Shown: positions 16,003 to 59,849, numbered from the stretch's first letter. The stretch: 64,000 bases of DNA from Amphiscolops sp. MND2022 (GCA_964187785.1 OZ076409.1:26724001-26788000); one strand, 5' to 3'. Made by a program: numbers and translations. Notes: generated from the sequence alone by a model not told the origin.

Positions 16003-16439
16003 GCGTCATGTCCAACGTGCAGTTTGACTAAAAGTGATTACATAAATTGTGTAATTGAGAAACTGTGCGAAAACAAAGTGACTGAGACATTGAAGAAGTA
16101 AAAACACTTCCAGTTTTAGTTGAAACAGTAGATGCTGCCTTGTAATCCTGTGGCTGCTTCGTTTTTTTTACAAGTCTTACTCCAAAAAGTTCGTAGAGGC
16201 TGAGACCTCCCTTACGCTATTACAGCACTGTCACGTTTGTTTATCGAGAAATTATTTTCTTTCAATTTTTTGAGGACTTACTAAATGCGTCAACTGAAAA
16301 CAAATGTCCAAGTCATTTTGACAATCGAAGAAAAGTGTTTTCCGGAGAGATATAAGATATCACCTAGACTCTTTAAACACTTTGGTCAACTTTAGGTTTC
16401 TATGGTAGAATGTTCTTTGTTTCTTGCCCGCATTGAAAA
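16003..16439 (+). repeat. ~440 bp dispersed direct repeat, copy 1 (copy 2 at 20467-20910)
   Basis: GCGTCATGTCCAACGTGCAGTTTGACTAAAAGTGATTAC...GCCCGCATTGAAAA is shared and colinear between the two copies. Confidence 0.9.
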
Positions 16440-20466: not shown

Positions 20467-20910
20467 GCGTCATGTCCAACGTGCAGTTTGACTAAAAGTG
20501 ATTACATAAATTGTGTAATTGAGAAACTGTGCGAAAACAAAGTGACTGAGACAGTGAAGAAGTAAAAATACTTTCAGTTTTAGTTGAAACAGTAGACGCT
20601 GCCTTGTATTCCTGTGGCTGCTTCGTTTTTTTTACAGATTTTACACCTGAAAGTAACAGAGGCTGAGACCTCCTTTAGGTTATTACACCACTGACACACT
20701 TGTTTATCGAGAAATGATTTTCTTTCGATTGCTTACATTTTTGGGGAATTACTAAATGCGTCAGTTAAAAACAAATATCGAAGTTATTTTGACAATCGAA
20801 CAAAAGGTTTTCCGAAGAGATATATAAGATATCGCTTAGACTCTTTAAGCACTTTGGTCAACTTTAGATTTCTATTGTAGAACGTTCTTGGTTTCTTGCC
20901 CGCATTGAAA
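20467..20910 (+). repeat. ~440 bp dispersed direct repeat, copy 2
   Basis: Colinear match to 16003-16439. Confidence 0.9.
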
Positions 20911-23900
20911 AAAACATTGAAAAAATTTTCAATCTATATAGCCGGTGACAAATATGCTGAGCAGAAAGTTCATGACTGAATATAAGGATTATCGAAAGAC
21001 AATGGAAATTCTACAAAAGTATACTTTTGCGGAATAATGCACTTTAGAGCAGAATCAAGCAAGTTGCTCATTACAATGTGGTATTTTGTTACCAAAAGAC
21101 CTTTCTGGAAACCCAATTAGTGTTAAGGTTATTGAATTGCTGGCTTTCAAAACCCGCATAAAATTCAAACCATCAAAGAGCAGTTTTGTGAAAATATGAG
21201 TCTGTGGTTTCATTAACGTCTTGATAGGAAATCAAACATGTAGTAAATCATTTGAGACACAGTTCCTGTTTTTCTCACACTTTGAGTTATAATTGGACTT
21301 TAGTGTACTGTAGTTTCATAAACTGAAAGATTTGTGAAAGATCGTTGGTGTACCGAGTATCCAACTTACAAGGCAATTGATTGCGCAACAAATTTCAAAT
21401 TTGAAATAATCTTGATCAAATGAAAACACCTTTACTCGATTAGCAGGATATTATAAGTGCTTCAGTTTAGTTGAGCTCTTCCGTAGAGAAATTTGGTGCT
21501 TGTCTGGCAAACAAAGTTGTGCTGGAAGAACCGTGGACCATCTGACTCGTTCCAAATTATTTCCATATTAGTCCCGGTCGATAGTATTTTTCATTAATCC
21601 ATATGCTTGATCTCAAGTGACAAGTCCATGTAGTTCACATGAAAATGCATGATTATTTGTAAATTTTTTAAAATCACTTATAACAAATAACTTTAAAGTA
21701 GGCAAGAGGTAGTACATAATGAGGTCCTAGAAAACTAAAACACACTAGGTTTCACTTGATCGCAATAAAAATTTCAAAAGGGGCGCAAATATACGCACCG
21801 GTAACCAAAAATTTTGATCATCCGACAAATTGGCCAGTATTAGAAAATACTAAAGCGGCAAATGTATAAGCTAATTGTCTGATGTAATTCAAAGGATTTT
21901 TGGCTTTTTAATACAATTCTACAAAAAATCTGTTAAGTTCAGTTTTGTTTGTCCGACATAATTGAAATTTCTGCATTGTTCTTCGTCTCTTCTCAATATT
22001 TCTAAGTGTCATACTTTCGGGAGTGTATTCCCTTCTTTACCCTTAAAAACTCAAGCATTGGAGTGAAACTTTCAGAAATCGATAAGTGAGACAATCTCTG
22101 GATCCTCATGATAAAAAAATCTAGAGTGCTCAACTTTGCTGAATGAATTCATTTTTTGTTCCTGACCTTTGATTTTCACCGTCTTTCAAGTTCCCTCTAA
22201 TCTTGCGAATATCCTCCTCATTTATGTGGCAGGTACTCGGTGCATTCAAAAGTAATTCCGTCCATCCAGAAAGGATTAAATTCAGTAATAGACATTTTAG
22301 AACTGTTCAATGGGTGAATCAAAAGTTGTTGGTCGCTTTAGGGGATATATTGGTTGTCCTAAACATCAAAAGAACCATTCCAAACGTTTTCAGCCGAATT
22401 CTGACTGTACCAAAAAATTGGCGTCAACTCAGTAGTTCATGCTGAAAAAAAATTTCAGCTTTCTATACTCCAAAAACAACTGTTGACCGTCAATAATGTC
22501 TTGGAAAATAGACTGTGACACAAACTTTCCAAACAGGCACGGCTTGTTTAACTAACTGTGCTGACGTGGAAAATTGGCTCCCTGTAAATTTTTATTTTCT
22601 AAATTTGACAACGTTCGGTCTCATCATAGTACCTAATGGTATGGGTATGAAAGCTGTTTCAGTTCAAACTGGTCTCCAAAACAACTTGATGACAACATTG
22701 AGAGCCTGAAGTCACGCATTCTTGATTAGAAAATCAACAACTTCAGTTTTTGAGTCACAAAGAACTTAATTTTCATCACAATCAGAATGTGTTTTTCGAT
22801 CAGAACGAAAAATTATTCCAATAGGAGTTAAGATTTCACTTTTAATTGAGCCAGTTCAGAGATTTAGATGTTTGGAGGAAAACTGACAACTTTTAGCACT
22901 TCTTACAGATATTTTTCGATTTTCAATACGTTTACGGCGTATATAAAAAATTGTCACTTGTGAATACTGCGGTGTTTTTCGGGTATCTCTCAAAATTGGT
23001 TGGAATTTTTTCCGGCTGTGGGAGATTGTGTCAATACTCCTACAGAAGCAACTTTTTTGAACTCTTTCCAAAAACAGCCCTTGATCAAATTTTAACGACT
23101 TTGTGATTCTTGAAACTTGAACAGGAAGTCGGTTTGGGCTATTCCCGTTTTACTGACTATGAGCTGTTTTTGTTGTTTTTATTTTCAAATAATTTTATAA
23201 ATTGTATCAACCCTAAACTGTTAAACCTTTGACAATACCATGTTGAAAAGTCGACCAAACATTTCGAACACCACATGATCACATTTATGCAGGTCATGGC
23301 ACGTCAATTTACTCGGTGTAAATCCAAAATGAAAAGAGTAAACTGTTAGTGAATGGTAGGCGTCTAGAAGGATTCCTCCACTTCTTGTCTTTCCGTTACA
23401 GATTGACAAATTTGGTTTCTTTTGTGTTTGTGAATCAACTCAGGAAATAATATATAATTGCAGTTTCCGATACTTGGTTAGAATTAGCAAAGTATTCAGT
23501 GATGTTTTTTGTTATTTCTTTGCAGCCAGGCCATTGAAAATTTCTCGAGTAGAATTGAAAAACTGCAGTTCTGACAAACATGAGCTCTAAATAAAATTTG
23601 CTTGTAGAAAAGTCAGAAAATGAAATTTCGAAAAAGATGTGTATTCATGGTTTCATTATTGTGACATTATTTATATATGATGCTGAGCACCGAGATATTT
23701 TCTGCTCTCTTTTGTTCTAGCAACGTTGCGCTACATATTTCATGTATGCGACGTAGCCAAAAAGTTGATTTGACACTTCTTGAATCATTATAGGCAGTTT
23801 GTTTTTAAAAGTCCAGGTTCCAAGAAAAATTTCAAAGTTCTTCAAAAGCTTTTTTCTTGAACTCAGAATATTCATTTTAATGAAAACAAGAACAATATGT

Positions 23901-24164
23901 ACAAAACTCGTTGAAAAATGAATTGAAATTAACCATTTTTGAATTTCGGTTGTTTTACATTTTAGTTTTTCAGAAATTTCAGAGCAGGAGTTACAACTCT
24001 GGTAACTAATCCGTGGCCACACTGTTCTCATCACAGCCCCACCGGTGGACACTACGGTTTTCTAGACTCTTTTTGCGGTGGCCATGAGTGAGCCACCGGT
24101 AGGCTACCAACGAAAACATTCAAAGTTTTGTAAAGTTTGGTGACGCGAACCTGCATTTTTTAGA

Positions 24165-24962
24165 TGCCCAAAGGGTCCCCCCTGCATTTTTTTAGATGTT
24201 TTGCGACAGAATGGATGTTGAAAAATCCCAAAGGGTCCCCCCTTTCAGTTTTTTTTCGGCATTGTGAATTTTTTCCCGAAAATGAAAATTTTTGTTTTCT
24301 TCAATTTTTTCATGTTTTGCGACAGAATGGATGTTGAAAAACCACAAAGGGTACCCCCTTTCAATTTTTCGGCATTGTGAGACTTTAGCGCGCCAGTCGG
24401 TCCATTTTTTTGAGTATGTAATTTTTTCGAAAAATTTTTTTCCAAAAAATTTCGATTTTCGAGTACTGTAAAAGAGTACTTGACAATTGGAAGTCTTTTT
24501 ACTATTTTTGAGCAGGGCTGTCATATTGTTAGTTAAAAACGATATTAACATGTTAACATGTAAATTACACAAAAGTAGATGTAAATAACAGTAAAATTGT
24601 AAAAATCAAAATCTTAGTCTTTGTTCAACTGCTTGAACAAAAAGGCCATTTTTCCCGCTTTTTCAACTCAATTTCCGTATTGCAAGCCTTGCATTTCCCT
24701 TTTTTAACACCATTAACAGTAACAGAAAGAAATTTATCCCACACCGGCTTTTTCGCTGGAGGCATTTCAGTGATCTGAAAAAATACAATAACACCGAATG
24801 ATGAAAATCCCAAAAAAACTGTTAAAATCGGATGTTAATTTCAAAACATTCATGTAAATAACATGTAAATTAAAGGCTTGTTAATAACACTATGTAAATA
24901 ACATGACAGCCCTGTTTTTGAGCCTTGGATATGGCGCCGACTTGGGCCGGTCCCGGCTTGTT
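24165..24962 (+). mobile_element. HINE family A, 5'-truncated, interrupted by a hAT element
   Basis: AAAGGGTCCCCC tandem units and the GGCGCCGACTTGGGCCGGTCCCGGCTTGTT 3' end. The conserved CTATTTTTGAG|CCTT motif is split by the insertion. Confidence 0.75.
24513..24914 (-). mobile_element. Non-autonomous hAT transposon (402 bp deletion derivative)
   Basis: TIR CAGGGCTGTCAT..ATGACAGCCCTG and an 8-bp TSD TTTTTGAG (24505-24512 and 24915-24922). Internal minus-strand peptide MPPAKKPVWDKF..KGKCKAC resembles the start of a BED zinc finger. Confidence 0.9.
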
Positions 24963-25084
24963 TTGCTTAATAATCCGATTCTTAGCCCTGCGCTTGAGGT
25001 TTTGTTAGAGTATGACTGATCTAAATGTGCTCTGCAAAACTGCTTATGGAGCGGCTTTAGGTCACGCTGTATCAGAGTGGGTGT

Positions 25085-25653
25085 GCGACAGAATGGATGT
25101 TGAAAAACCCAAAGGGTCTCCCTTTTAGCGCTCAAGGGGTCCGCGGTAGCAGGCCCCAGGCGCGCCAGTTCGGTCGTCTGGGTTTTTCGGAAGTTTTTGA
25201 AACTTTTTTTTGATTTTGATACTTTGAGTATTTCGACACTTGATGTCCTTTTGCTATTTTGAGCCCTAGATATGGCGCCGACTTATGTCGTTCCCGGCTT
25301 GTTCATCCAGTTCATGATTGATTGTGGCAGGAAAAAGAGTGCTAGGGTTTCGCTTTTTTGTCGTCGAATGAAGTTCCAAAAGCATTTTTCTGAAGTCCCC
25401 CCTTTCAGTTTTTTGGCATTGTGCGATTTCTTTCAAAAATTATTTTTTTTCACCAAAGGATCAGCCCTTCACCTTTTTTGATGAATTGCCACAAAATGGA
25501 CAAAAAATCTCAAAGGGTCTCCCCTGGCGCGCCAATTCGGTCCAACTTTTGGGCTTTTCGGGTACTGTAGGAGAGAATACTTGACACTCTGAAGTCCTTT
25601 TGCTATTTTTCAGCCCTAGAAATGGCGCCGCTTTTTGTCGTTCCCGGTTTGTT
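25085..25653 (+). mobile_element. Two tandem 3' fragments of HINE family A (ends at 25303 and 25653)
   Basis: GAGCCCTAGATATGGCGCCGACTTATGTCGTTCCCGGCTTGTT and CAGCCCTAGAAATGGCGCCG..GTCGTTCCCGGTTTGTT. Confidence 0.65.
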
Positions 25654-25765
25654 TCCGTTCTAAATTCCGTTTCTGAATATCTGTTTTTTGAATATTAAAT
25701 GACTATGTCAAAATTAGGAGAAAAACTCTGGTTTAGCAATTTTTTCCTGAAGATGAAATGCGGAC

Positions 25766-26188
25766 AAAAACCAGAGCCGCATATGCGGTAAAGGAGTCGG
25801 CTTAGGTCTTTTTCCTTCTGACTCGCTCCAATCCCAGTTATACGAATTTATTGAAATTGCACACATAGGACCATATTATGGTGTAGAAAATGACTGTAGA
25901 AAATTTTGTTCGAATAGTATGGACAGTTTTTGAGAAAATCGAAAAAAGTCGAAAAATGGCTGTTTTTGGGCTAATTCTTGCTATCTTTCTCACATTCCAG
26001 TCATACGATTTTGATGCCTTTGTGCGCGCAGGGGCCCCTTTGGGTGTAGAATGACTGTGCAAAATTTTATGAAAAACGTATGGACAATTTTTGAGAAATT
26101 TGAAATTTTCATGAAATGGTCGGGAGAAAAATTTTAAAAAATGACACGATTGAATAAGTAGTCGAAATTTTTTTCCGACTCCTAAAAA
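25766..26188 (-). mobile_element. HINE-like element, family B, copy 1
   Basis: Subterminal inverted pair AGGAGTCGG / CCGACTCCT, terminal palindrome CCGCATATGCGG, partial inverted repeat AGTAGTCGA near the other end, and A/T-run termini. Second copy at 56401-57270. Confidence 0.7.
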
Positions 26189-27379
26189 CTGGATTGGTCG
26201 GCAACTTCGAAAAAAACAAAGTCCCAATTTTTGAAACCGTTTTCCAACTTGATGCATCGTGTCGTCGTTTCATTTCTCTGATTTTCGATTTCAAATTTGA
26301 GAATACCTTGCCCACTGGACTGCAATTTGAATATAACCATGTTTGTTGATCACTAAACATCTGGTAAATTACAAAAACGTTCAGTCGATAATGAAATTAG
26401 TCAATTCAATTATCTTCTTCATTGGTCTTTGATCTATGTTCGCTTGAGTTACCTTAAATTTGGCGCTGACTGTAATTTCAATCCCAAAAGAAGCCTGTAA
26501 ATTACTGGAAATAGTCCAAATTATGTAGGTATGGGTAATTTCGCTTCAAAAACAGCGGAATGAACTTGTACTGGAAATCGGTTTCGAATAACAAGAGACA
26601 ATTTAGAGCTTTTCCTGTTGAGTAGTTGCAAAAACACCTGACAACATGACATTGATCCAACTCTGATTACTCAGAGCAAATCCATGTCAGGAAAATGTTG
26701 ACTTAAAATTCAAAGCAAAGACCGTTGATTTCTTCAAGATAAATTAGCATTTGAGTTTGAACCGACTAATCTTCATCTGAACCGCCCTAAAATTCCAGAC
26801 AGTAGGTTTCACAATTGGTTTCACGCGAAAAGGATTTGCAACAAAGCCGAAAACTGGTTGATTTGGGCTTGTTTAATTTGGAAATTCCGTTTTTAGGGAA
26901 TGTGAACAAATTCCGTTTGGTTTCAAGGTTACTTCTAATTGAAGAGGAAAATTGTTTGGCATTTGAACATTGCTGATTATCAGCGAACTATTGGAATAGA
27001 ATGGAATTTGATTTGCATATACCTTTGGTTTTTCATTGATGCGAAGAGTGGCGTAGTAAATATATTTGCAATTGAATTCTGAGAATTTTATTTGACTGAT
27101 GGAGACTTTTACCGTGTAGTGTAATTATTTTCGATGCTGTCAGTGAAACGCAAAGCTCTCAGTGAATCTTCAAAAAACGTTGAAGTCCTTGCTTCTCATT
27201 TGAATTATTATTTTTAAAAATTTGACTTAATTTTTTGAAGGTTATTGTATTCTGCTTGTATAGCTGATATGAAATCGATATTTAAAATAACAATGTTTTC
27301 TGTAACTGGAAACGTATCGTAATGATAGTGAGCTATCTATAGAACTAAAAACGTGTTAGTCAACAAGAACTAAAATGGC

Positions 27380-30300
27380 AACGGATTGTTTGTCAACAGT
27401 TTTAATGACGTCTGTTGCTCTTCATTTCCCCCTCTGCAATTGGATGGGAAGTATCCAATGGGGTTCCGTTGCCGTCCAGATTGCTGTTGTGGTCGGTATG
27501 CCGTCCGCGTCCTGTTGTTGATGTATCCGAATTTCAGCCGTTTTGAGGTGTTTCCTGTAATCAGTTTGGTTAATACGGATATTTAATCTAACAATTGGGT
27601 TTGTTTACGTTAGAAGTTTTGACCGGCGTAGGTTAGTTTCTTTTATGTTTTCTATTTCTTTTTCAATCTTTTCAATCTCGGTGGTAGAGCTAAGGTTGCT
27701 GGCTAGTTCTAAGTTTGACTCAATTCCCTTTTCAAAAGTATTTTAGGTTACCGTACCGTTGGTGTCTTTAATGTGGAGGTCTTGTCCTGATTGTTGTGTG
27801 TCGCAGATTATTTGTTCGATGTCGGAAACCGACATTTGATCCGCATTGATTGTCCGGGGACTAAGTTGTTTGTTTTTACCATTTCCCGGTCTTTTTTCTG
27901 GTGAAAACGATTATTCCCGGTTTCGGATGAGTTTGGGCCTTCCTCTGCTGAATGTTCCAGATTTTAGGGTGCCCTGTATTTCTGATCTGGTGTTCGTTGG
28001 ATCGTCTTGTAATGGAGATCGATCGGGAGTGGCCGGGGTATTGTCTTCTTTGCGTGGCAAATCTTCCGTCCGGTCCTCTTGGTCCAGTACCACTGTCGAG
28101 GGTTCCTGTTCAAATAGTGTAAGTGGTTTAGTGATTAGTTTAAGGTGAATTGTTCTATTATCAGCTATAGTTACGATGTGATTTGTTTCCTTTACAGCTG
28201 TTTGTAGCTGGACTGAATATGGACTTTCAAATTCAGTTTTTGTGTTTTTCCGTTTGAAGAATTGCAACGGATATTTACTAACCGTCATTGTCGACTTTCT
28301 CTTTTGTTTCATTGAAAGATGGTCGTTGCTACTGCCTTCTCCACCTTTTCCACGGAATATGTAAACCTGTAAGGTTTCTGGCTTTGCTGAAAAAGAATGG
28401 TTATTTGTTAGTTTTTTGATTTCGTTTATTTTTAACATGTTGCTCAATTCCGTATTCGGTTCTCTACCGAAATGCAAATCAAATTCCGATTTCTTTAGCT
28501 TATTGTGTGGGGTAGTTCGCATTATTTCGTATGCTAAGTCGAAAGATTTTCCGAAAGATTCTCTGCTTTAACGTTAGTTAATAGGTTTTCCCTTAATGTT
28601 CTCACCTCACGCTCTTCTAAGCCGGTCGGGGTATGAATATGCGGCGCGTCCCGTATTTTATCGAAAAGTAATTCTTTTGGCAAAATTCTAAAAATTAGTG
28701 GCCCGTAAATGCCAACGCTTTGTCTTTTCTTATCGTTTTTGGTATACCGTTCAACTGAATGTACTGTTGAAGGGAATTTACCGCCGTTTTCCGTCTGTTG
28801 ATTTACATAGACTGGCGGCCGGACATAAACTGTCCCGGTCCATGGAAAATAAAATATAAAATCTACGATTCTCTTCCGTGATTGGTCCGATGAAATTCAA
28901 TTGGATTTCTTCATTTGGCGAATTTAATGGTGGTCGACGATTTGTTCCGTCTTAGGTATATTTGGTTAAAGATTCTTACCAGAGAGTTTACACGGTATGC
29001 AGCTGTCACACTTTCTTTGGATCGCTTCTGAGAGCTTCGGCCAGCAGAAGTGTGTTGTCGCCATCGTCAAATTTTTTATGGTGTGATGTCCTTCCTCTGT
29101 GCAGGAGTGTAATAAATGCAGGTGGTCCGTAGATTGGCGGGGCAATAAGTTTTTCTTCGAAGAATACTAGTCCGTACCTCGGTGACAATTTCCAATTGTA
29201 CTGGTAGTATTCTTCGGGGATGATGTCATATTGCTTTCTCTCCAGCATACGAGGGTCTTTAGTAGTTTCGGATCGTTAGTTGTTTCCGTCATCAGTAGTT
29301 GAAGATCCGTTGCGAATTCTTTTTTGGTTTCTCTGACGGTGTTTTCGTGGTCCCAGTTTTTTGGCTCTATTGCCTGTGTTTTTGACCCATTTTGATATAT
29401 TGCACGCTCTTTACTCCAAGATATTTGGCCCAGTTAATGGTTGGTACTTCCAGTACCAACGGTGCCAATTCTGAGTCGCTCGAATTTCCTCCCTCCTCCA
29501 TTGGTGTTTCGTCCGGTGCATAGGAGGTAGTAGGACGTGCTTGGGAAGTGCTTGGCCGGTTATACTCTTGGGGGATAAATCACCCTTCAAAGTCCTGTGC
29601 TTCTGTGAACTGCCAGTCTGGGAAGTAATCGGTTTGTTGCTGGTTCAGAATTGGCCGGTTTCTAATTTCTACGGCCGGGCTTTCTAATCTTCGGATTATC
29701 TCCGAAAGTCTTTCTTCGATTGTTCTTCTCTCGCCGCGAAGAAGTTTTGGTTCGTGGTATTTGTTCCACTTACCATTTGATAATCGGTAAACCCCCGGCT
29801 TTACAATGTTTTGCCATCTTTCAGTTAGGTCGGTTGTCTCTTGGGATGATTCGATTTTTTCAAAGCTGTCAATGGTTTTAGCGACCTTTGTTATCAGATT
29901 AATTGTCGATTTGAATTCAACGTCACTGTTTGAGGTGCGATCAAGGCGATCAAGGCTAATAATGGCGTTTTGTTCAGGGGCGTTGTCCGTTGACCGATAT
30001 CTGTTTGTTTTTGTCAAGTTTGTTGGTTTGTTCTCGGAACGTGATTGGTTGAACCGGTTGCTAAGGCAACCGAATTTAGAAAAAAATCCGTAGTGCGGTG
30101 CTATGCTGTTAATCATATACTCTTCTTCGTATGCATCATCCTTTTGCGCCGATGTGATAGGATTTCTACTCAAGTTATCCGTGAGCGCTAAGTGTTTTCC
30201 GGCGATGTGGTTTACGTGTATTGTGAAATGTGCTAATCGGTCGAGAAAGCGTGTTAGGCTTGCGCTGTACGTTTTGTTTGAGCTGTTGCGTTTCAATAGC

Positions 30301-30940
30301 GGTTCTAATGCTTGGTGATCCGTCAGTAAATTGACGGGTTTTCCGTAAATGTAGAGGCGGAAGGATTCTAACCCCCAGACTACCGCTAGTAAATCCAGCT
30401 CGTTGATTGCATATTTTTTTCTGTATCCGATAGAAATCTGCCTGCGAAAGCTATTGGTTTCAAATCGCCGTTATCTTGTTCTTGCCAGAGAGTTGCGCCT
30501 AGCCCTTTTGTACTGGCGTTGGTTGTAATTGTGTTCGGTCGAACGGAGCTATAGTGTACCAAAGACGGTATTGCCGTGATTTTGCGCTTGAATTGGTTAA
30601 ATGCTTCGGAGTGTTCCGTTGTCCAATTCCAGTTGTTTTTCTTTTTTAACAACTGTCTCAATAAGTCTGTCTGTGCCGACAGATTTTCGTTGTGTTTTGA
30701 CAAATACTGAATTGCCCCCAGAAAGGAGTTTAATTCATTCTCGTTTTTGGGTTCTTTCAATTCTTGAATTGCTTTCACTTTGTGCTGTAACGGTCTGATA
30801 CCGTTTCGGTCAATTTGGTGACCTACCCACTCTGTTTCGGTTTTGAAAACTTCCGTTTTGTTTTCACTCAGTCTATACCCTGCGTTTTCTACTTTTGTTA
30901 ATACCTCGATTAACTCACGTTTATATATAACGACATGAAA
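27380..30940 (-). mobile_element. Ty3/Gypsy LTR retrotransposon pol relic (RT C-terminus, RNase H, integrase); 5'-truncated and frameshifted
   Basis: ORFs 30386-30967 (WVGHQIDRNGIRP..ELNSFLGAIQY..NASTKGLGATLWQ..PIAFAGRFL), 29580-30296 (HIAGKHLALTDNLSRNP) and 27911-28522 (RTTPH..DLHFGREP), in RT-RH-IN order. No LTR pair found. Confidence 0.9.
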
Positions 30941-32320
30941 CCTAGATGATAAAAAGTAGCCGCACACTGTTTCAGAATCTTCAAACTTTACGTGCAGCGG
31001 TAAATATTACAGGGTTATCAAGGAAAAACATAGAAACTCTTGAGAGTTTTTGAAAGACGTTCGTGAATAAGACAGCTCTAGAATTGCTATCGTTGTGAAA
31101 ATTTGTTTTCAGATTTTATCAATTTAATTCACCTCATGATGCATCAAAAATCACAAAGAGTACTTCACTCAATAGTTGAAGTTGAATTCTCATTCAAAAA
31201 ATGAACAAAACAAGACACCGGCTGAGTACGGGAAGTTTTTCTCCCTGGAATAATTTAACATCAACAATTTTTGAAAACCTCGACCTTACTCGTTAAAATA
31301 ATAACTAACATCTTCATAAAAACATGAACCTATTTTTTAAATGCAGCGATTATAATATCTCAATTGTCAAGATTTAAAAATCAAATTTATATAAAGGAAA
31401 GCCCCTGAGAGGTTTTTTGTTATCCCATATCAGAAATGTTTCGATGATAACAATGCAGAGAAAAGTAGAAACAACTTGGTTTCAATGAGTTCATACCGCA
31501 AGTAATCGTCGAGAAAGTCACGGGATTACAACAGTTTTTCGTGGAACGTTTTGCGCTAAGACACAAAAGGAGAGAGACTGTATTCTACACATGCATTTCA
31601 AGTGTTTGGAAGGCATGGCACTTATTCGAAATCTTCAGAGACACTGTATACAAATAGACGCCTAAATTAACGTTCAAATTTCAAAACGTTCATGGTTTGA
31701 CATTCATGTGGGTTTGAACCTTTTCAACTAGGAAAACTTGATATCAAAACGAAGCGTCAAATTATGAAATTAGGAAATACGAAGTTTTTTGTCATTTTTG
31801 AAGACTCCCTCAGTATCATACTTTTTTACGTAATGATATCTAAAAAGAGTTGTCAGCGTTCATCTTGCATCATTAAAAAAACAAGGGTTACAAGTTTACA
31901 CCCCTTCGCTTGAACATGCTTGCTTTGTTTGGGTTGTTAAAGACGAAAGATGCCGTTATTAAGGTACACTATTAGCGACAAAACAACCAAACCGCAATAA
32001 CAAACACGACGGGAAGTCTCAAAAATGAGCTCAGCGTCAGAAAATTTCCAATAAATTCGCACTGTAAACTTTTTCAAAAGGCTGTTTCTGACCTAAAAGC
32101 ATTGACAATCCAAATGAACGACACTTCGACGGTCGACGGAATTAAAAGAAAAAGAAACTTTCGCACAGTCACAACAACCGAAAGGTAGGACATTTAAATT
32201 CGAGTTTGGACGTTATAATGCATTTTATAAGCTTAGTTCGATTTAAAAAGGCATTGTTTAAATTCCCGTCATGACCTTTCTGCCTGGCTAGAAAACTACT
32301 GTTCAGCTGATTCTATTTTG

Positions 32321-32785
32321 AACAAGACGGGAACGTCCCAAGTCGGCGCCATATCTCAGGCTCAAAAATTTTCAAGGAACAACTATTGGAAAGATTTGGA
32401 AAAAATATTTTTTTTTCAAAAAAAGAATTTTTTTAAAAAAAGTTGCACAATGATGAAAAACTCAAAAAGAGGCCATTTAGACTCATTAAACGCTTTTACA
32501 AACCGAAAACTTCAAAAAAATGCAAGGCAAATCTACACTTTGATAGAATTCGAAAAAAGTCGCATAGTGCCGAAAAAACCCAAAGGGGGGACCCTTTGGT
32601 CTCGTCTCTACTTTTGTACTTTTGGAAGCATAAAAAATTTGTGGTTTAGTGCGAGAATCGAACCCACGATCTCCTGCTTCTCATAAAATTAGTTGAACAT
32701 ATGAACAAAAGATTGTAAAAAAGTGGACCATTCAGAGTGTAATAGTCGGGCTTTTTTCCTAAAGATAAAATACGCCGACTAAAAA
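32321..32785 (-). mobile_element. HINE family A copy
   Basis: AACAAGACGGGAACGTCCCAAGTCGGCGCC at the start and ATAGTCGGGC..ACGCCGACTAAAAA at the end. Confidence 0.8.
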
Positions 32786-32922
32786 TAGTTGCAGCGCTTT
32801 TGCCCCGTTTTTGTGGAAAGCACCTAGAAGCACAAAGCACATTTGACATATGGTAAACTGTGGTATCCTCGCCAAAACATTGCAAACTACTGATGCTTGT
32901 CAAAATCTTTTAATTTTATCGA

Positions 32923-34074
32923 TGTTGGCGCCTCAAAATTTGTTCCGAAAAATTGAAGGAAAAATAAGTCGAGTTAGCCAATTTCAAAATGATGTAAAAA
33001 TGTGTAGAATTGAGTTTGAGTGCTAGTTTTTGCCCAATCGACATATTTTGACCCAAATGAGAGATTTAGGCTGAAAAATTGAAAATCGAAGACAAAAATT
33101 TTTAAATTCTTGTCTTACGTCCCAATTTTGACCCTTTCCTTAATTTAAGAGTATATTTGAACTGTAATCTTTGTTTAATGTGTTAAAGTCGTTACGAGCT
33201 CCTTATTTGGGCTACCTGGGTGCTCTGAGGATCCAACAGCACCATTTACAAACATCGTTGATTATTCTATAGCAAATAACATGTGTAAATGTATGCCTTA
33301 ATCTTGCTTAAATGTATGCCTTTTATATATACTTTTACATATTTTTGTGTATACCTCTAGCCCAGTTAAATAGTTTGTTTCTGCTTATTCTATATATCAA
33401 GGCGCTTGTATGGTGATGGTAAATTTAACCACAAACATCCGCCATTTGGTATTTCCCGTATGAAAAAGTAACCAGAGTTAACTCCTACTAAGACACAGCA
33501 ACCAAGTAGAGATTCAAATCAGTCGACTTTGCTACTCAAGTATTGAAGAAAGTGAAAGCTTGGAAGTTTCTCGTACGATTGATTCAGTTAACTCTGGCTA
33601 TTGAAGAGCTTTTTGGAGTTGAACGAGTGATATTACATTGTTTCGAAATTCCAACGTCAATTTATTATATTGCATATGGTTGCGATATTTTTGCTTGAGA
33701 AAGTTATCGTGGACACAAGGATTGGGATCGATCGATTGGTTTAGCAGATCAACAGAAGCTACTCTTCATCAGGACAGCTAAGTTGATTCCTATAGTCACA
33801 GTTTAAAGCTACTTTATGTTTGCGAAACAGAATAAGTACAAAGTCAAAGATGCAGTAATTGCTTCACCGAATTCCGAAACTTATTCAAAGTAACGCAAGC
33901 TAAAATTTTCATTGAAATTAGTTGCAAATCACCTATTGAAGGTTCGTGATTAGTGGTTTTTGCAAGTGCCTTTCCTGGACAAATCAGATATAGAAATTGT
34001 CCTCCGCAAGTTGTCAACCAGGCCGTCGTAAAGCTTGGTAAGTGTTTCTGTTAGTTTACCTTGCAGACGCAAAA
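32923..34074 (+). repeat. 5' LTR of BEL/Pao element
   Basis: TGTTGGCGCC...TTGCAGACGCAAAA. By eye it differs from the 3' LTR by about 4 substitutions and 2 small indels. Confidence 0.97.
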
Positions 34075-34077
34075 TTT

Positions 34078-34095
34078 TGGTGCCGCGACCCAGGA
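34078..34095 (+). promoter_or_regulatory. Primer binding site (tRNA-Phe- or tRNA-His-like)
   Basis: TGGTGCCGCGACCCAGGA lies 3 nt after the 5' LTR. It resembles the TGGTGCCG.. PBS of Phe/His primers; the exact tRNA cannot be resolved. Confidence 0.8.
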
Positions 34096-34171
34096 AGGCA
34101 CTCTGCAAATTTAACCCATTTGAGCTTTGTGAAATTTGCCTATCTGACCGCTGTGAAAAAAGCAAAAGACA

Positions 34172-37100
34172 ATGGCTGAAGGTGGGTTTTATGATCCTCA
34201 ATTCATGACCGTGTCAAAAAATGGAACTGAAAGAAAAGTCCCATTTTCGGATTCGTTAAAAAACTCATCCACGTTGAGCGACTGGATCAATCATGAAAAA
34301 CGGGTATTTGACATTGTCTCGACCATTCGAAATATGGAACATGACTTGCGAAATATCAAATCAAACAATCCAGTTCTTTGGATCGATAAGGGCAATTTTT
34401 GTTTAAAGTTTTGGGCGTCTAAGGATGAATTGAAGAAAGAATTCGAACTGTATCTTCCAATGTTGAAAGAAAAGAACCAATATAATCGCAGAACGGCTCT
34501 TAGGAAACTAAATTTGGAATTCGAAGAAAGATTCACAGAATGGTGTAAAGACCTCCGAAATCTTGGATTTATCGGTAGCCTTTCCCAGAAATTAAAAGAT
34601 GAAGGAGACTTGCTGAAGTTTTGTAAGTCCATGGATCAATTTTCCGAAAAGACACGAAACTTGTCCAGTGAATTAGATACGATTAACAACTTGATGAAAC
34701 AAGAAGAAAAGTCAAGTAAAGTGAAGTCATCTATACAAAAACTACAAGAATTCAAAAGTAAGCTGGATAAGGTTTACGAAAGTGTTTGTAGCCAGCTAAA
34801 AACGGAATCAATTGGAGAGTTGTCAATGTTTGAAAAGGAAATTAGAGAATTCAGTGTGAAAATACAACAAGCGACGACAGATTCATTGAACTATGTCGAT
34901 CGTTTGAATGAAGTAAAAGATCATTGGAACCAACCAATATCTTCAGATGGGTTGGGGGAAACTACCTCCATGAAAGACATTCCAGTGACATCGACTGGTG
35001 ATGAAGGTAGTCAAACTCGGAATTTGCGCCAAAGTGCAAACGATACACTAGAAAAGAGTCTGAAATTGCTGAGAGATGTTAACCAATCCACAGCGTTTGA
35101 TAAGAGTGAAAACCGTACGGAAGTTGCTCCTCGGCAAACAGGATCAGCGACTTTGAGTACAGTGAAGCGACGTTCATTAGTGGACTTCTCACCTTCAAGA
35201 ACTTTGCCGAAAAGTGATATCTGCAAACCGTTGGGCTCAAGAGTGGGTTGCGAGTTGTCAAGGGTTAGTGAACTACGACGCTTAGAGATGCATGCTAAAG
35301 TGTTAGAACAAAAGTCTCAGTTAGAAATTGAGAAAAGGCAGCGAGAATTGAAACTGGAGAAAACGAAAAAGCAAATGGAGATGCATCAGAAGCTCCAAGA
35401 TCTACAAGCGGAAGCTGAAATTGCTGAAATGGAAAGCAGAAAAGCGCTTGAGCAGCACGAAATGAGACTGCAAATAGAAGAAGCTGAAGGGTCAGTTCGT
35501 GCTGTGTCGATTTGTCCCAGCTTGATGTCTCTCACCCTTGGAGAAGACAAAAACAGTGACATCAGAAGCTGGTTAGAACGAAGTGATGAAAATCTCGAAA
35601 AGGGCTTTTCACAACCGAAGGAATCTAGTAGAGAGGTAGAAATCAAATATGGATCAAGAAGACTACCTCAGAGATTCCCAAAACACTCTCCTCTGAGAAA
35701 TCATTTGCTGCCTTCGCAACCTCAAAGCAGGGGTACCAGTAAGTCACCTCCGAGAAAAAACGCTGGAATCACTTTTCCGAAAACAAAACCTTCACTTCAG
35801 CAACGCAATGACGAACCGAAGCCTAAACATGAAGTCGCGAATCCCACTTTCAAAGTAAAAAATCCTTTTCCTTCCTTTACCCCAGCAGTACCTCTACAGC
35901 AACCTGTACAATTTGTTCAAACAAGTTTACCTAAGCTAAAATTATCTGAATTTCACGGAGATCCATTAGAATGGCCGGAATGGTCCAGCTTGTTTACAGC
36001 AACCATCCATAATGCACCTATCGATGACAATGCAAAAATGAGTCATTTGAAATCGCTCGTTTAAGGTAAAGCCAAGGCGGCAATTGCTGGTCTTGGATAC
36101 TCAGGAATCATGTATAGTGCTGCATGGAATGCTTTGGTTACCAATTTCGGACGTCCGCAAACAACTGTGAATGCGCAGATGAAGCAAATCCATCTGAGTC
36201 CGTTTATCAAGTCGCATGACTCAGCAGCTATTATAAAGTATGCTCAGTTGATCACTACTTGTGTCAACGTATTGAAACAATTTGGTTTCACTGGAGATTT
36301 GTACTCAGAATCAGTCCTCAATTCAGCTTTGAGAAAGTTACCTCCTGAATTGAAAACAAAATGGTTTTTTCTTGCAAAAAGCAAAAGCTACTATAATGCA
36401 GATCTTTGCAAATTTAGCGAGTGGCTAAATGAAGTTGCCTATGTGCATGATGAAATGATGGTGCAATTCAAAACACCATTTGAGAAAAAAGCCACTGGAT
36501 CAACCGAAAAGGTTAAGACTTCAACATTTGCTGCCAATGACCAAGATAAACATCAACTTCTATTAAGCAATGTCCATTAAAAGATGGCGAACATAAACTT
36601 TGGATGTGCAACAAATTCAAACAGCAAGCTGTCAGCGAAAGATATGAAACGTTGAAAAAACTGAAACTTTATTTCTGTTGTCTTAATTCTCATCTGATTA
36701 AAGACTGTAAATCAGAACGTGTCTGCGGTATGAATGGTTGCACTAAGAAACACAACAGGCTTCTACACTCTGATGCGCAGAAAATAGATAAAGTCACCAA
36801 TGACAAGAAAACAGAAGACTCGGTGCCTCAAAGCAGGGCCGGCAGCTCTTCAATGATTTCGACAGGCAGTAACAGTTTCTTACAACTGATTCCTATTTCG
36901 ATAGGTAATGAAAAACGATGCGTTGAAACCATTGCGCTCTGTGTTACCGGATCCACTGTTTCGTTTATGGATCAAAGTTTGGTTGATCTTCTCAGGTTGA
37001 AAGGTAAAGAGTCCGTAATGTCCGTTGCTGGCATTCATGGTTTGTCTGATTTGAAAACGCAAATAGTAACAGCCAAAGTGGGTTCCAGCGAGACAGAAAC

Positions 37101-40100
37101 GGCTGGAGAGACTGTAACGTTCTGCAGTCATCCTAACCTAAATGTTGGTGAAAAAGACTATGACTTCAGAAAACTAAAAGAAGAGTACCAATATTTATCT
37201 GATCTGCCTAATGTTAAAGTCTCAATGACTGATGTTAAAGTGATTTTCGGACAGGATGCTTATCATTTGATCAGGCCGCTGGAATACAAATCTGGCGAAA
37301 GAAATCAACCAAGGGCAGTTAAAACAGCACTGGGTTGGACCATTAGCGGAGCCTTGCCAAAAAAGGAAACAAGTAACATATCGGTTTCTTGCAACCTTTC
37401 AGTTGCACCCGACCCCATGGCAAATCAGATGAAAAAATGGTGGGACATGGAGACATACGCGTCAGTGTGTGATGTCTCTGGTCGATCCAAAGAAGAAAAG
37501 AAAGCACTGTCAATTTTAGAAAGGACAACAAAGCATAACGGCGAACGTTATCAAGTTGGTTTATTGTGGGCTGATGACAATCCCGATCTGCCTAACAATT
37601 ATTACTCAGCATATCAGCAGTTCTTGTCGATGGAAAAAAGGTTGGAGAAAGACCTTGAATTGAAAGAAGCTTACAAAGCTACCATTGAGAAGGACTTGGA
37701 AAACCATTTTGTTCGAAAACTGGATCAGGAAGAAGTTTCCAGAACAGAGAATGATATGCAATGGTACTTACCTCATCACCCAGTGAAACATCCACATAAG
37801 CCAGGCAAGGTCAGAAGGGTTTATAATGCGGCTTCAAAGTTTAGAGGCGTTTCGCTAAATGACAAACTTCTCAGTGGACCTGATTTATTGCGCAACTTAG
37901 TGGGAATTGTTTTCAGGTTCAGAGAGCACCTTATAGCAATCACTGCCGATATAGAGTCAATGTTTTCACAAGTAGCAGTTCCGAAAGAAGAATGTAGAGT
38001 TCTACGTTTTCTTTGGCGAGATAAACCAGAAGATAACATTGGAATTTTCGAGTATAATAGGCATGTGTTCGGAGCAAAGAGTTCCCCAACGTGTGCCAAT
38101 TATGGTTTCCAACAAGGCGGTATAGATAACAAAAGAGAGTTTCCTGTAGCAGCCGCTACAATAGACAGAAACTTCTATATGGACGACCTAGTCAAGAGTG
38201 TTGATACACCACAAGAGGCCATTGAATGTTATCAACAGTTAGTGGAAACACTGAAGCGCAGTGGCTTTACTCTAAAGAAATGGGCGAGCAATTGCCCTGA
38301 AGTGCTTGAAGTTATCCCCTCGGAAGACCATCTGAAATCTAATGAATTTACATTGAATGCGGATTCATCGCCCATCCTAGGTCTCGAATGGACCATAGAT
38401 TCGGATAGTCTTCAAGTCTGCCGAGGACCAAACAAAGAATGTCCACAAGAAGTAACGCAACGAGTGGTACTATCCTTTGTTTCATCTGTATTTGATCCCA
38501 TGGGAATCTTCGCACCGTTTACCATGCGAATCGAATGAGAATGCTTTTGAAGAGTATTTGGATCCGTTTTGGTCAGTCGTGGGACGAAAATATCAGTGAA
38601 GAAGATAAGCGAATATTCTTCGAGTGGGTACAAGAAATGCAGACAATTAAGCAGACATCTCTTTCCCGGAAGTATTTTTCCAATATCCCCAAGAACGTGC
38701 AGTTACATATTTTCAGTGATGCCTCTTTGGAAGCAATGTGCATTGTTGCATATTTTCGAGGAGAACTCGAAGATGGCATCGAAGTGTCCTTTGTGTTGGG
38801 CAAATGCAGAATAGCTCCCATCAAACAGTTGTCTATTCCTCGTCTAGAGCTACAAGCAGCCCTGTATTCTGTGAGGTTGAGAAAGTTGATCATTCAAGAA
38901 CACGATTTACCTATTAATGGTGTAACTCATTGGACAGATTCCGTTACCGTATTGCAATGGTTAAACTCAGCGGACAAAAAGCAGAATGTCTTTGTTGCCA
39001 ATAGAGCAGCTGAAATTCTGGAAAACTCCACTATTGACGAATGGAAACATATCCGTGGCGAGTTGAATCCATCTGACATTGGAACTCGTGGGATAACTAT
39101 AGAAATGTTATCTGAAAGTGAATGGTTAACCGGACCTTCTTGGTTGAAAGACCAGCCTGAGGATTGGCCGTTATCTTTGCATCCAATTCACGTGATTTTT
39201 GATGATCATGCTGAAGTTGCAGTAATTCCGAACACAAGTATGACTCAGGAGCCACCTGTTGATTGGAAAAAATTTAGTAGTTTCTCGAAATGCGTCCGTG
39301 TTATCGCGTTTTGTTTGCGGTTGAAGTATAAAAGTCAATCTAAAGTTTTACTTGTTGAAGAATTGAATAGAGCAGAAGAAAGAGTTTTGAAAATGATTCA
39401 AAAAGAATCTTTCCCGGACCTTTTTGATGAGAAGGAAAGTTTCGGTAAAACTAAAAAAGGCGGAAATCTATCAAAATTTGCACCCTTCTTTGATGAAAAA
39501 GGAGTTATCAGAATTAGGGGTCGCATCAAACATGCCAACTTGACCTTCGAACAGCGTCACCCAGTTTTGTTATCTACTAAACACGACATGGTAATGACCA
39601 TGTTGCGAGATCTACACTTCGAACACAATCATGAAGGTGTAGAGTATGTGAGAAATGTTATTCAACAAAAATTTTGGAAAATCGGGTTACGAAATTCTTT
39701 GAGAAGTGTTAAAACTAATTGTGTGTTCTGTCGCAAATTACGTGCACAGAGTAAAACCCCGTTCATGGCCGACGTACCCCCAGAGAGACTTGATTATCAG
39801 TCATATCCGTTTACCAACGTTGGGGTGGATTATTTCGGTCCGTTTGAGGTGAAATTATTAAGAAGATCTATGAAACGTTGGTGCTGCTTATTTACATGTT
39901 TAACTACCAGAGCGTACATATCGAAGCGGTTCGAAGTCTTGACACAGATTCTTGCTTGGTAGCTATCAACAGATTTATTGCTAGACGCGGCAAGCCGACT
40001 ACTATCATCAGCGATAATGGTACTAACTTCGTTGGATCAGCAAGAGAGTTGAAGGAGTACATCAACTCATGGAATCAAAATCAAATAACGTCAGAGCTTG

Positions 40101-40759
40101 CTCAGAAGCTCATTGTATGGAAGTTTAACCCTCCTGGTGCACCCCATTTTGGTGGTGTATGGGAGAGATTAGTTAGAAGTTGCAAAAAGGCAATGGTGGC
40201 TATATTGGGTAATCGATCTCTTACAGATGAAGTTTTATTGACAACTATGTGCTTAGTGGAACAAACATTAAATGCGCGTCCTAATACTCCAGCAAGCGAT
40301 GATCCTGAAGATCTCGAAGCACTTACACCGAACCATTTTATTATTGGTCGAGCGAATGTTTGCATTCCCTTTATTCCAAACGCAGAGGTTTATGCTAACC
40401 ATAGAAAGATGTTTAGATCAAGCCAAGCTTATGCAGACATGATTTGGAACCGATGGGTGAAAGAATACCTTCCTCAGAACAATGTAAGAGCACAATGGAA
40501 CAAGTCAGAGCCAAATATTCAAGTTGGAGATCTTGTTTGGCTGATAGAAGACAATGTTAGAAGGTCTCACTACAAGATGGCGCGTGTCATGGAAGTATTC
40601 CATGGGAAAGATGGTATTGTGAGATCAGCACTGATCAAAACTGTCGATGGAACCCTGAAACGACCTGTGGTTAAACTGGCGCCACTTTTTGAAAAGCGTT
40701 TTCGAACTGAAAACGGGGCGGGCATTGTTGGCGCCTCAAAATTTGTTCCGAAAAATTGA
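34172..40759 (+). pseudogene. BEL/Pao gag-pol polyprotein, disrupted
   Basis: Gag LPKLKLSEFHGDPLEWPEW; Cys/His knuckles; protease site LCVTGS (catalytic D to V); RT YLPHHPV, LLSGPDLL, FYMDD; RNase H LHIFSDAS, SIPRLEL, NPSDIGTRG; integrase VGVDYFGPF, SDNGTNF, APHFGGVWER. Lesions: in-frame TAA at 36062-36064 and frameshifts at ~36550, ~38530 and ~39913. The stop codon lies inside the 3' LTR. Confidence 0.95.
40709..40725 (+). promoter_or_regulatory. Polypurine tract
   Basis: GAAAACGGGGCGGGCAT immediately upstream of the 3' LTR. Confidence 0.75.
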
Positions 40760-41873
40760 AGGAAAAATAAGTCGAGTTAGCCAATTTCAAAATGCTGTAA
40801 AAATGTGTAGAATTGAGTTTGAGTGCTAGTTTTTGCCCAATCGACATATTTGACCCAAATGAGAGATTTAGGCTGAAAAATTGAAAATCGAAGACAAAAA
40901 TTTTTAAATTCTTGTCTTACGTCCCAATTTTGACCCTTTCCTTAATTTAAGAGTATATTTGAACTGTAATCTTTGTTTAATGTGTTAAAGTCGTTACGAG
41001 CTCCTTATTTGGGCTACCTGGGTGCTCTGAGGATCCAACAGCACCATTTACAAACATCGTTGATTATTCTATAGCAAATAACATGTGTAAATGTATGCCT
41101 TAATCTTGCTTAAATGTATGCCTTTTATATATACTTTTACATATTTTTGTGTATACCTCTAGCCCAGTTAAATAGTTTGTTTCTGCTTATTCTATATATC
41201 AAGGCGCTTGTATGGTGATGGTAAATTTAACCACAAACATCCGCCATTTGGTATTTCCCGTATGAAAAAGTAACCAGAGTTAACTCCTACTAAGACACAG
41301 CAACCAAGTAGAGATTCAAATCAGTCGACTTTGCTACTCAAGTATTGAAGAAAGTGAAAGCTTGGTAGTTTCTCGTACGATTGATTCAGTTAACTCTGGC
41401 TATTGAAGAGCTTTTTGGAGTTGAACGAGTGATATTACATTGTTTCGAAATTCCAACGTCAATTTATTATATTGCATATGGTTGCGATATTTTTGCTTGA
41501 GAAAGTTATCGTGGACACAAGGATTGGGATCGATCGATTGGTTTAGCAGATCAACAGAAGCTACTCTTCATCAGGACAGCTAAGTTGATTCCTATAGTCA
41601 CAGTTTAAAGCTACTTTATGTTTGCGAAACAGAATAAGTACAAAGTCAAAGATGCAGTAATTGCTTCACCGACTTCCGAAACTTATTCAAAGTAACGCAA
41701 GCTAAAATTTTCATTGAAATTAGTTGCGAATCACCTATTGAAGGTTCGTGATTAGTGGTTTTTGCAAGTGCCTTTCCTGGACAAATCAGATATAGAAATT
41801 GTCCGCAAGTTGTCAACCAGGCCGTCGTAAAGCTTGGTAAGTGTTTCTGTTAGTTTACCTTGCAGACGCAAAA
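40726..41873 (+). repeat. 3' LTR of BEL/Pao element
   Basis: Near-identical to 32923-34074. Confidence 0.97.
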
Positions 41874-42039
41874 ATCGAGACTGTTGTGGCAAACATTGTA
41901 TGTTACTGTTCATGTGCAAAACTTCCAATTTCTTTTGAGAGAAGTGTCCTGGATTGCTAATTTTTGTCTCAGAATTTTGAGAAAAACTATCTGTCGAAAA
42001 TGCAAACTTGTACAAACAATGTATTATACAGAAGTAATG

Positions 42040-57651: not shown

Positions 57652-59252
57652 AAAAATCTATTTTTCCCGCGGAATTTTCATTTGGAAAACCGTTATGGAG
57701 CGTTGCTCCGCTAACTAGACTAGATCGTGGGTTTAGGGTTATAGCCGTTATTAAAGCCCAAACTATGAAGATATTTTGACACTTCTTTACTTCTTTATTG
57801 ATTTAAAGCAACTTTGGGTTCAGGTTTTAATACATTTTTTTCACTACCGTCAACTCCACCAAACTACAGTAGCGTTCTAAAATTTTGCAACTCCATTATT
57901 CAAATAGACAAAATTCAAACCTACTGAAGTTTTTCGAACAAGATTTTTTTCCGAATCACAAAAAATACACTATATTTTGTGTCTATGAGCACTGAAGTAC
58001 ATGTATGTAAGATAGGCTATGAAAATTGTATTTAAAAAATGATGATTTTTATTTGAAACTGAAAAAGTGTTTCAATCAAATCATATCAGAATCCCCTGGG
58101 GACTCAAGGGCTAATGATTGACTGCAATTTTTTCAAAAACATTTTTCCAACTTAGTAAAAATTAAGAAAAAGTGCAAATTCGATGAAATTTTAGCGAAAT
58201 TCACAATTTCTTACTTTTGTAATTTGTTGCAAAAATTTCAAACAGACTTTTTTGTAAACTAGATGAAATTCTGAGAAATTTTCCTAGCTGACATTTTTCG
58301 TTATCGTGACAGTTTTTAAGATATTTGGATTTGAAATTTGCAATTTTAAGCAATGGAGTTGCGAAAGTTTAGATCGCTACTGTAATGATATTTGCCTATC
58401 ATTAACTCGTCATTGACTCTTTTGAGTTTGTATTAGTAAGTTTCAAAAACAAAACTGAATTTTTGAACACCGAAGTACGCTAAGCATACAAGTAGTGTGT
58501 TGGAGCCTGTGGACCCTCATTCTCACAAAAAAACCGTAATATGTCCACAATTGCATTTAAAAAACGAGAATTGGGAAGAAAGAAAGTAGGCGAAAGTTAA
58601 TTTTTCAATTTCGTGACTGGATGACAAAAAGTTCTTACGCTTTGCTAAGTTGGTGCCTTTTTTCGGAAACTCATATCGTAGGTATCACATTTGCATCCGA
58701 ATGGTCGAGCAAGGGTGGGCTTGAAACTGCAATTTCAACCCAACTAGCCTAATTAACGAAAAATGTGAACCAATTTTTATGAATTTTGTCCTCTTTTAAT
58801 GCAAAATTGTTAGCCATAATCACACCACACGACTAGAATGAAAGGATTTTTTTAAGGTCCATTTTTGGCTGGCAGTTGCGAGTGATTCAAACCCTGTGGC
58901 CCACCGATAACTTCATCGAATTCACCGAAATTGCTATCAGTGGGCAATGTTGGACATGAATAAAATCGCTACAGATGGACGCGCACATTGCAAAATGGTT
59001 GTTCAAAGGTGTTATGTCGACAAAAGCACGGAAGCCCATCGAGTGCAAACTAAACGCAGTTCTCGAGTTTTTGAGGAATTCGCTCGCTTGATAAACCGAT
59101 ATTCAACGTCATTCGATTAATCCAGCAACAATATGTGAAACTTGTTGGAACAGTTACATGGACGTGATGGAGTATTTTAAGGACAATTAGGCAAAAATTG
59201 GTGAAATTGTATTTGCTCATTTGAAACACTCCAATGCCTTCTCTCGCACAAT
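57652..59252 (+). repeat. Segmental duplication copy A (copy B = 59672-64000, with extra segments)
   Basis: 57652-57856 matches 59672-59880; 57856-58160 matches 60342-60647; 58160-59252 matches 62908-64000. Confidence 0.92.
57867..58382. mobile_element. Tc1/mariner-type MITE (duplicated copy 60353-63131 carries a ~2.26 kb insertion)
   Basis: TIRs CAGTAGCGTTCTAAAATTTTGCAACTCC / GGAGTTGCGAAAGTTTAGATCGCTACTG, flanked by TA on both sides. Confidence 0.85.
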
Positions 59253-59849
59253 AGTAGACATTACCTTGAAACTAGCTGTTCACCACGTATTTGAGTTCCT
59301 TGAGGTTTGGGAAATTGCTTGAATTTGCTTTAAAAGGTACCTGTATGCTCTCTTAAACTTCTCACTCTGAAAACCCGTTGATGAAAAGGCATGCGATAAT
59401 TTTATTGAAGTAGTAATGTTTTACATGTTAAAATTTGTAATCAACAAGTTAAAATGCCGAAAACGTTTTTAACAGTTAAATATGACAGTCATGCTTTCGT
59501 CTATAAATCGTGAAAATCTATGGAAATTCAAACAACTTGTTAAGGTCTCAAAACATCGATTCCTATCTGGTCTCCGATGACCAATTGAGAAAAAACGGGC
59601 TCTCACAAAGCTATCAACGTTCTGGTACAGTGAAAAAATTTCATGGGAAATATACTAAGAAGCAAATTTGAAAATCTATTTTTCCCGCGGAATTTTTTTT
59701 TTGAAAATCGTTATGGAGAGTTGCTCCGCTAACTAGACTAGATCCTGAGTTTAGGGTTATATCCATTATTAAAGCCCCAACTATACAGATATTTTGACGC
59801 TTCTTTACTTCTTTTTTTTAATTATTTAAAGCAACTTTGGATTCAGGTT

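Follow-up and report, generated by a model that had tools for sequence, protein, structure and literature searches.

The window, a stretch of 64,000 nucleotides from Amphiscolops sp. MND2022, contains a young, decaying BEL/Pao retrotransposon (32923-41873) whose family inserts precisely despite a U5 end in AA. The preliminary description had proposed a BEL/Pao element with TG...AA termini, a TSD ATCGA directly after four A's, a third copy at 16918 ending in the same way, and a family integrated at least twice with the AA end. These points were borne out: the first by Pfam domains, the second by a systematic test of TSD positions, the third by the AA end of that copy in front of a different flank, and the last by 14 flank junctions and 11 U5/PBS junctions read from database proteins and by a relative from another metagenome (L128). 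The U5 end in AA characterises the family, which has integrated with it many times.

The two LTRs are direct repeats, 99.3% alike in a self-comparison of the window, with 4 substitutions over 1148 aligned bases and 2 indel events. Both start with TGTTGGCG and end with TTGCAGACGCAAAA, giving the termini TGTT...AAAA (Table 1), and a perfect 5-bp TSD, ATCGA, stands on both sides. Right ends from 41868 to 41876 were combined with TSD lengths of 4, 5 and 6 bp. Among these 27 combinations 2 matched, an end at 41873 with the 5-bp ATCGA and an end at 41874 with the 4-bp TCGA, the LTR finishing in AA in either case. The 4-bp solution was rejected because it would need five A's at the LTR end and the 5' LTR has four; placing the end at the internal GACGCA (41870) was likewise rejected, no TSD of 4 to 6 bp being found there. 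The chance of a given 5-mer such as ATCGA at a fixed place is ~1e-3. The LTR start corresponds to a canonical CA-3' on the opposite strand. With a canonical U3 end and an AA U5 end, the element falls outside the TG...CA type, which has CA-3' at both ends and a short inverted repeat.

The PBS reads TGGTGCCGCGACC and we take its tRNA to be tRNA-His; the window holds no host tRNA gene. The preliminary description had also pointed to the start of the PBS 3 nt past the AAAA. The position (34078) is correct, but the distance is weak evidence when taken alone: it fits the boundary without fixing it because the spacer varies in CA-ended BEL controls (2, 3, 4, 5 or 7 nt), and it was rejected as an independent proof. 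The boundary is fixed by the TSD together with the flank junctions described below. Just inside the U5 end (34038-34066, plus strand) lie a GTAAGT donor-like motif and a pyrimidine-rich TTGCAG acceptor-like motif, 29 nt apart; they are identical in the other two window LTRs, and both are retained in L128 (30 nt apart), where the intervening bases diverge. From their sequence they could bound a very short intron, or be splice sites used separately, in overlap with the attachment site of the integrase.

Table 1. Coordinates of the retrotransposon and of the third copy in the window
Feature	Position	Strand	Basis
Independent 5'-truncated copy: ~100 bp of internal end and 1151-bp 3' LTR, 93% identical; start TGTTGGCG, end GACGCAAAA	16918..18166	-	self-comparison
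Left TSD ATCGA	32918..32922	+	sequence, TSD test
5' LTR, 1152 bp; start TGTTGGCG, end GACGCAAAA	32923..34074	+	self-comparison, sequence
3-nt T spacer, U5 end to PBS	34075..34077	+	sequence
PBS, presumably tRNA-His type	34078..34094	+	sequence
gag region, in-frame stop at 36062-36064, DUF1759 in second part	34157..36580	+	Pfam, frames
Cys-His boxes, protease region, reverse transcriptase (RVT_1); frame changes at both ends	36550..38538	+	Pfam, frames
Peptidase_A17 (Pao-type), integrase zinc-binding domain (below Pfam cut-off), start of integrase core	38496..39962	+	Pfam, frames
Remainder of integrase core (rve, weak) and DUF5641; frame runs through PPT into 3' LTR	39848..40759	+	Pfam, frames
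PPT, G-rich core 40715-40722, then 3-nt spacer ahead of TGTT	40709..40725	+	sequence
3' LTR, 1148 bp; end GACGCAAAA	40726..41873	+	self-comparison, sequence
Right TSD ATCGA	41874..41878	+	sequence, TSD test

The third copy has the same TG...AA termini as the LTR pair, with 72-74 substitutions relative to the other two LTRs. It is a separate insertion; its 5' part lies outside the window, so the TSD is seen in one copy only. The AA end is present in 3/3 window LTRs, followed by three different downstream sequences. The truncated copy is bracketed by a 440-bp direct repeat (16003-16439 and 20467-20911, plus strand, 88% alike), which also ends in an A run and in which neither a TG start nor a TSD was recognised.

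Other features of the window were recorded alongside. Fragments of a second retroelement (27911-31006, minus strand), probably of Gypsy type, gave RT_RNaseH and RT_RNaseH_2 matches, and 21000-33000 showed no evident LTR pair on either side of them. A 1.1-kb direct duplication, 96% alike, occupies 58157-59252 and 62905-64000; further duplicated pieces lie at 57653-58161 and 59671-60648, with 61570-62702 in the same region, where a 185-bp tandem array is also present. A near-perfect palindrome of 235 bp (9390-9624, 92% self-complementary) is possibly a MITE or a foldback element.

The coding region follows the order gag, PR, RT, RH, IN along 34157-40759 according to the Pfam matches, in a frame that is broken in this copy. 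Peptidase_A17 (E 7e-30), DUF5641 (E 1e-25), DUF1759 (E 9e-8) and RVT_1 were found above their curated cut-offs; Integrase_H2C2 (E 1e-4) and rve (E 4e-4) were under theirs. A DDE integrase with an HHCC zinc domain was nevertheless recognised, its core aligning without gaps to 15 homologues. The catalytic motif of the protease region is degraded. With these domains and two direct LTRs, a tRNA PBS, a PPT and a 5-bp TSD, the element belongs to BEL/Pao. Its coding region carries one stop and three frame changes. As ~2.3 kb of LTR has 2 indels and 6.6 kb of coding sequence has 3 frame changes, the breaks are about as numerous as the LTR pair's own indel rate predicts, and decay after insertion would therefore suffice to explain them. 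The tail of the pol frame, ENxAGxVGA (40709-40759), encodes the PPT and the LTR start and recurs in many of the C-termini of 60 homologues (P0001-P0060); the U3 start seems, from these sequences, to be conserved across the clade.

Other copies of the family were reached indirectly, through antisense gene calls that run across the U5 end and are available as protein, not as DNA. Within the antisense frame 33953-34213, the last two LTR bases and the flank base next to them make up a single codon. This codon can read F, I, L or V where the LTR ends in AA, and M, L or V where it ends in CA, so that M demands CA whereas F and I exclude it; I also permits GA or TA, and F also permits GA. The protein set (n=35) comprised 13 representatives and 20 proteins, overlapping, from antisense-frame searches, plus members from two cluster look-ups. 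The U5 end was crossed by 28/35 proteins. The 7/35 without a junction were set aside: P0212, P0213 and P0216 are unrelated, and in P0228, P0239, P0231 and P0232 the match lies within the LTR and leaves out its end. For the plus-strand frame across the junction no homologue was found.

Fourteen distinct flank junctions were obtained, with F in 6, I in 1, V in 4, L in 3 and M in none. Hence 7/14 exclude CA, 7/14 (L, V) fit CA or AA, and 0/14 demand CA. The terminal A was kept in all 14, an outcome with a probability of ~1e-7 if that base were flank, and the base at -3 was kept in 13/14; the codon just outside the junction showed 10 different residues. Because the terminal A is constant while the next codon outward varies, joining is precise and the boundary exact. 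None of the database flank junctions equals a window flank. According to the preliminary description, its reading would fall if most copies ended in GACGCA or CAACA, and this was not the pattern of the 14 flank junctions. Taken alone, these junctions tolerate up to about half CA-ended copies in a likelihood profile. One protein, P0229, may on its sequence derive from a copy ending at the internal GACGCA. The gene calls crossing the U5 end are spurious, and their source contigs perhaps come from the same host species.

The 11 U5/PBS junctions, from contigs of 10 different lengths, gave I in 8, N, R and S in 1 each, and M in none, so CA is shown by 0/11. This absence of M bounds the CA-ended share at ~24% if the junctions are independent, which need not be so. 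The terminal A is absent in 3 of the 11 (P0215, P0220, P0222), and a single step leads from a CA end, though not from an AA end, to the R of P0215.

A PBS-anchored scan of metagenome contigs returned at least 113 matches, with 88 distinct upstream contexts among the matches listed. CA stood 2-5 nt ahead of TGG in 54 of these 88 contexts, most commonly at 3 nt (25); many of the remaining contexts are probably chance PBS matches. Also among the matches listed was L128, from another metagenome, which is 78% identical to the window element over 147 bp of U5 and PBS, is not alignable upstream, and matches the start of gag weakly (E 0.001). Its DNA reads GCAGACGTAAAA, then TTT and TGG, i.e. AAAA-TTT-TGG, and 13/14 of its last U5 bases match the window element. 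Since AA is also seen in its DNA, this end is retained in a diverged family; it is a trait of the lineage, old and heritable. The U3 end and TSD of L128 lie outside the part of the contig covered, so that AA is read there at U5 only.

Control BEL elements with two resolvable LTR ends showed CA in 5/5, with LTR-PBS spacers of 4 nt (L038), 2 nt (L075), 3 nt (L094), 5 nt (L079, counted together with its near-duplicate L099) and 7 nt (L151). Because all five end in CA, the AA of the window element occupies the usual BEL CA position. Of nine second-copy matches, four were unusable as 3' LTR ends (L055, L064 and two in L100). In the genome-contig scan 2/7 stretches were confirmed, L151 and L150; the latter was uninformative, its terminal repeat lacking LTR termini. 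L043 shares the PBS type and ends in GCAAACA; it was rejected as an ancestor-like control because its RT is only ~25-28% identical. The BEL element of L151 (4507-11347) is complete: its two 447-bp LTRs, TGTT...AACA, are identical and it has a 5-bp TSD. The record that contains it bears the title of a bacterial MAG, into which animal DNA was probably binned. In L101, L114, L125 and L126 the PBS is preceded by A-rich ends without a close CA; none matched the window family, and they are candidate LTR ends only. In viral contigs the U5-end pattern gave 0 matches, integrase scans confirmed 0/30 and 0/35 candidate stretches, and the PBS pattern gave 37 matches, none with a BEL match; one of these (L029) shows AACA-TTT-TGG.

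The preliminary description had further inferred an integrase with altered or relaxed end recognition, and here the comparison of residues gave no demonstration of an altered enzyme. The integrase piece has 2503 database relatives, the closest being 85-93% identical among the best 120 of the 2503, and of 155 columns in its core that 15 homologues conserve, 1 has a private change. The loop and helix near the catalytic Glu contact the DNA end in retroviral intasomes. In this loop and helix the element carries the majority residue at 22/22 positions (107 readable sequences among the best 120 homologues), and its APHFGG.WE loop is also found in the CA-ended L151, the helix after it being different. 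The CA-ended controls are 30-43% identical; those other than L151 (30-39%) differ more around the catalytic Glu. Within the loop and helix no residue set the AA family apart, and the integrase had no PDB sequence match. Matching the homologues does not prove an ordinary enzyme because the comparison, with integrases 55-70% identical, is one of protein sequences alone. The integrase core looks ordinary, and an altered end recognition is a hypothesis.

Several known systems can be set beside this element. The element resembles canonical BEL/Pao (Belpaoviridae/Semotivirus; L151, L075, L094, L038, L079) in the order of DUF1759 gag, RT, Peptidase_A17, integrase and DUF5641, in its tRNA PBS after a short T spacer, its PPT, its TGTT start and its 5-bp TSD, as also reported for Pao_Cv1 (PMC3630058). 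Unlike the canonical TGTT...AACA, its U5 ends in AA, which breaks the terminal inverted repeat at position 2, and its LTRs measure 1.15 kb, unlike those of L151. Conserved inverted termini are described for nearly all LTR elements, Bel/Pao included (PMC3601003). We found no published case of TG...AA in BEL/Pao, in a literature lacking most subscription papers and the Repbase reports; the available text of PMC3118150, searched by term, held no passage on termini, PBS or TSD.

The closest likeness in geometry is with the CsRn1 clade of Ty3/Gypsy (PwRn1, AgCR-1 to -14), recently active elements with asymmetric TG...AA ends. Their termini are given as TGT...AAA or TGT...ATA (PMC2582038), and the 3' motif of the CsRN1 LTR model as MSYYAMA (PMC3601003 Table 3). 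That clade has a tRNA-Trp PBS (TGGTGAG/CCCCGT/A), a CHCC gag, a 4-bp TSD and a Gypsy pol, unlike the window element with its different PBS, 5-bp TSD and BEL/Pao-type domains. Membership in CsRn1 was therefore rejected on PBS, TSD length and pol type, the termini alone agreeing, and the AA end would have arisen independently in BEL/Pao and CsRn1. A heritable change of the penultimate base with normal TSDs is likewise found in Tos17 (TG..GA), AcCOPIA1 (TG..TA), lotus Copia, Rosaceae Copia with TGTT and AACA (PMC5659011), and the Lamellibrachia luymesi Gypsy elements LLGY30 and LLGY101, listed as TGAA (PMC8220671). Seven types of non-TGCA LTR elements are reported from 42/50 plant genomes (bioRxiv 10.1101/137141), and in lotus Copia -2 is described as the least constrained terminal base, with C, G and T but not A there (PMC9804982). 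These plant and annelid elements are Copia or Gypsy, whereas the window element is BEL/Pao.

We give a probability of about 0.6 to the reading that the integrase of the AA lineage joins the terminal A in the normal concerted fashion and tolerates the change at -2. The U5 attachment end would have become ...AA long ago, through one change at -2, the usual repeat being TGTT...AACA; the C would have been either substituted or lost. tRNA-primed reverse transcription would copy the AA U5 into both LTRs; the integrase would remove the 3-nt T overhang before integration, by analogy with the di- or trinucleotide 3' trimming of retroviral integrases, whose CA is described as invariant (PMC5329712), and in a single concerted step would join both ends, U5 through its terminal A and U3 through its canonical CA. 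Such an enzyme would require the terminal A and subterminal sequence and tolerate A at -2, with no demonstrable new specificity. Normal catalysis is argued for by the precise junctions and the 5-bp TSD, whereas loss of CA in retroviruses lowers coordinated integration, one CA-deleted provirus having a 273-bp duplication (PMC2857682). A single copy, with both ends and a TSD, supports the normal 5-bp duplication. The latitude would be the same as that of the TG..GA, TG..TA and TG..AA elements of other superfamilies.

Plain tolerance is not a given, because Ty1 integrase needs millimolar Mn2+ to use AA ends and does not use them at physiological metal levels (PMC8487063). This rejection of AA by Ty1 favours the main rival reading, possible though doubtful, in which a BEL-clade integrase has adapted to asymmetric ends, CA at U3 and AA at U5, and AA is maintained by selection, perhaps in every member of the clade with the WERLVRSCKK helix. 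It would agree with the retention of AA and of nearly all the last bases in L128 although its U5 has diverged, with the lack of reversion to CA among the PBS junctions, and with TGTT Copia integrases being reported as distinct (PMC5659011). The helix after the catalytic Glu does differ from the CA-ended controls, but differences are expected anyway at such low identity, and the loop and helix yielded no residue specific to the AA family nor the PDB a match on which to map DNA contacts. The same enzyme must still use CA at U3, and the subterminal conservation may instead reflect the splice-acceptor-like TTGCAG overlapping the end.

Tolerance by a normally acting integrase is also to be weighed against a rescue of defective ends, in which the integrase joins U3 alone and leaves the AA end to host repair, or in which AA copies are passengers of a CA-ended helper. 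The broken coding region of this copy and the aberrant joining of CA-less ends described for retroviruses would suit such a rescue; it is nonetheless improbable in the face of a perfect 5-bp TSD, the same junction base in 14/14 database and 2/2 window flanks, coding breaks near what LTR decay predicts, and no CA-ended helper among the 11 PBS junctions. Least probable, and largely refuted, is a misplaced boundary, with the LTR ending at GACGCA and the A's being flank, local mutation or homopolymer error: the window copies do have a CA 3 nt inward of their end, the 3' junction consists of a run of A's and P0229 could end at GACGCA, but there is no TSD at 41870, the A's recur in all three window LTRs before different sequences, the -1 base is kept in all 14 flank junctions and the -3 base in 13 of them, and L128, on a separate contig, has GACGTAAAA with no internal CA.

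For annotation, strict TG..CA settings would mis-trim such an element by 3 nt and lose its TSD, and to this extent the warning of the preliminary description about LTR finders stands. It does not extend to LTRharvest run with one motif mismatch or without a motif, which in an annelid study recovered TGAA elements that enter the final set, although TGAA is absent from the LTR_retriever motif list quoted there (PMC8220671). Novelty was overstated, TG...AA termini being published for Gypsy elements, and no general principle is changed because they were already known there. As far as the literature searched reaches, non-TGCA termini are extended to a third LTR superfamily.

For integrases of the retroviral type the CA end is regarded as invariant, and here a multi-copy, recently active BEL/Pao lineage joins AA precisely. 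Its substrate and enzyme form a natural test of how strictly an integrase reads -2. If, as we hold to be rather unlikely, CA at U3 and AA at U5 are the working ends of an entire BEL/Pao clade of greater age than one host species, with a co-evolved integrase and AA under selection, that clade would be a natural system in which to find the residues that read the -2 position of the 'invariant' CA.
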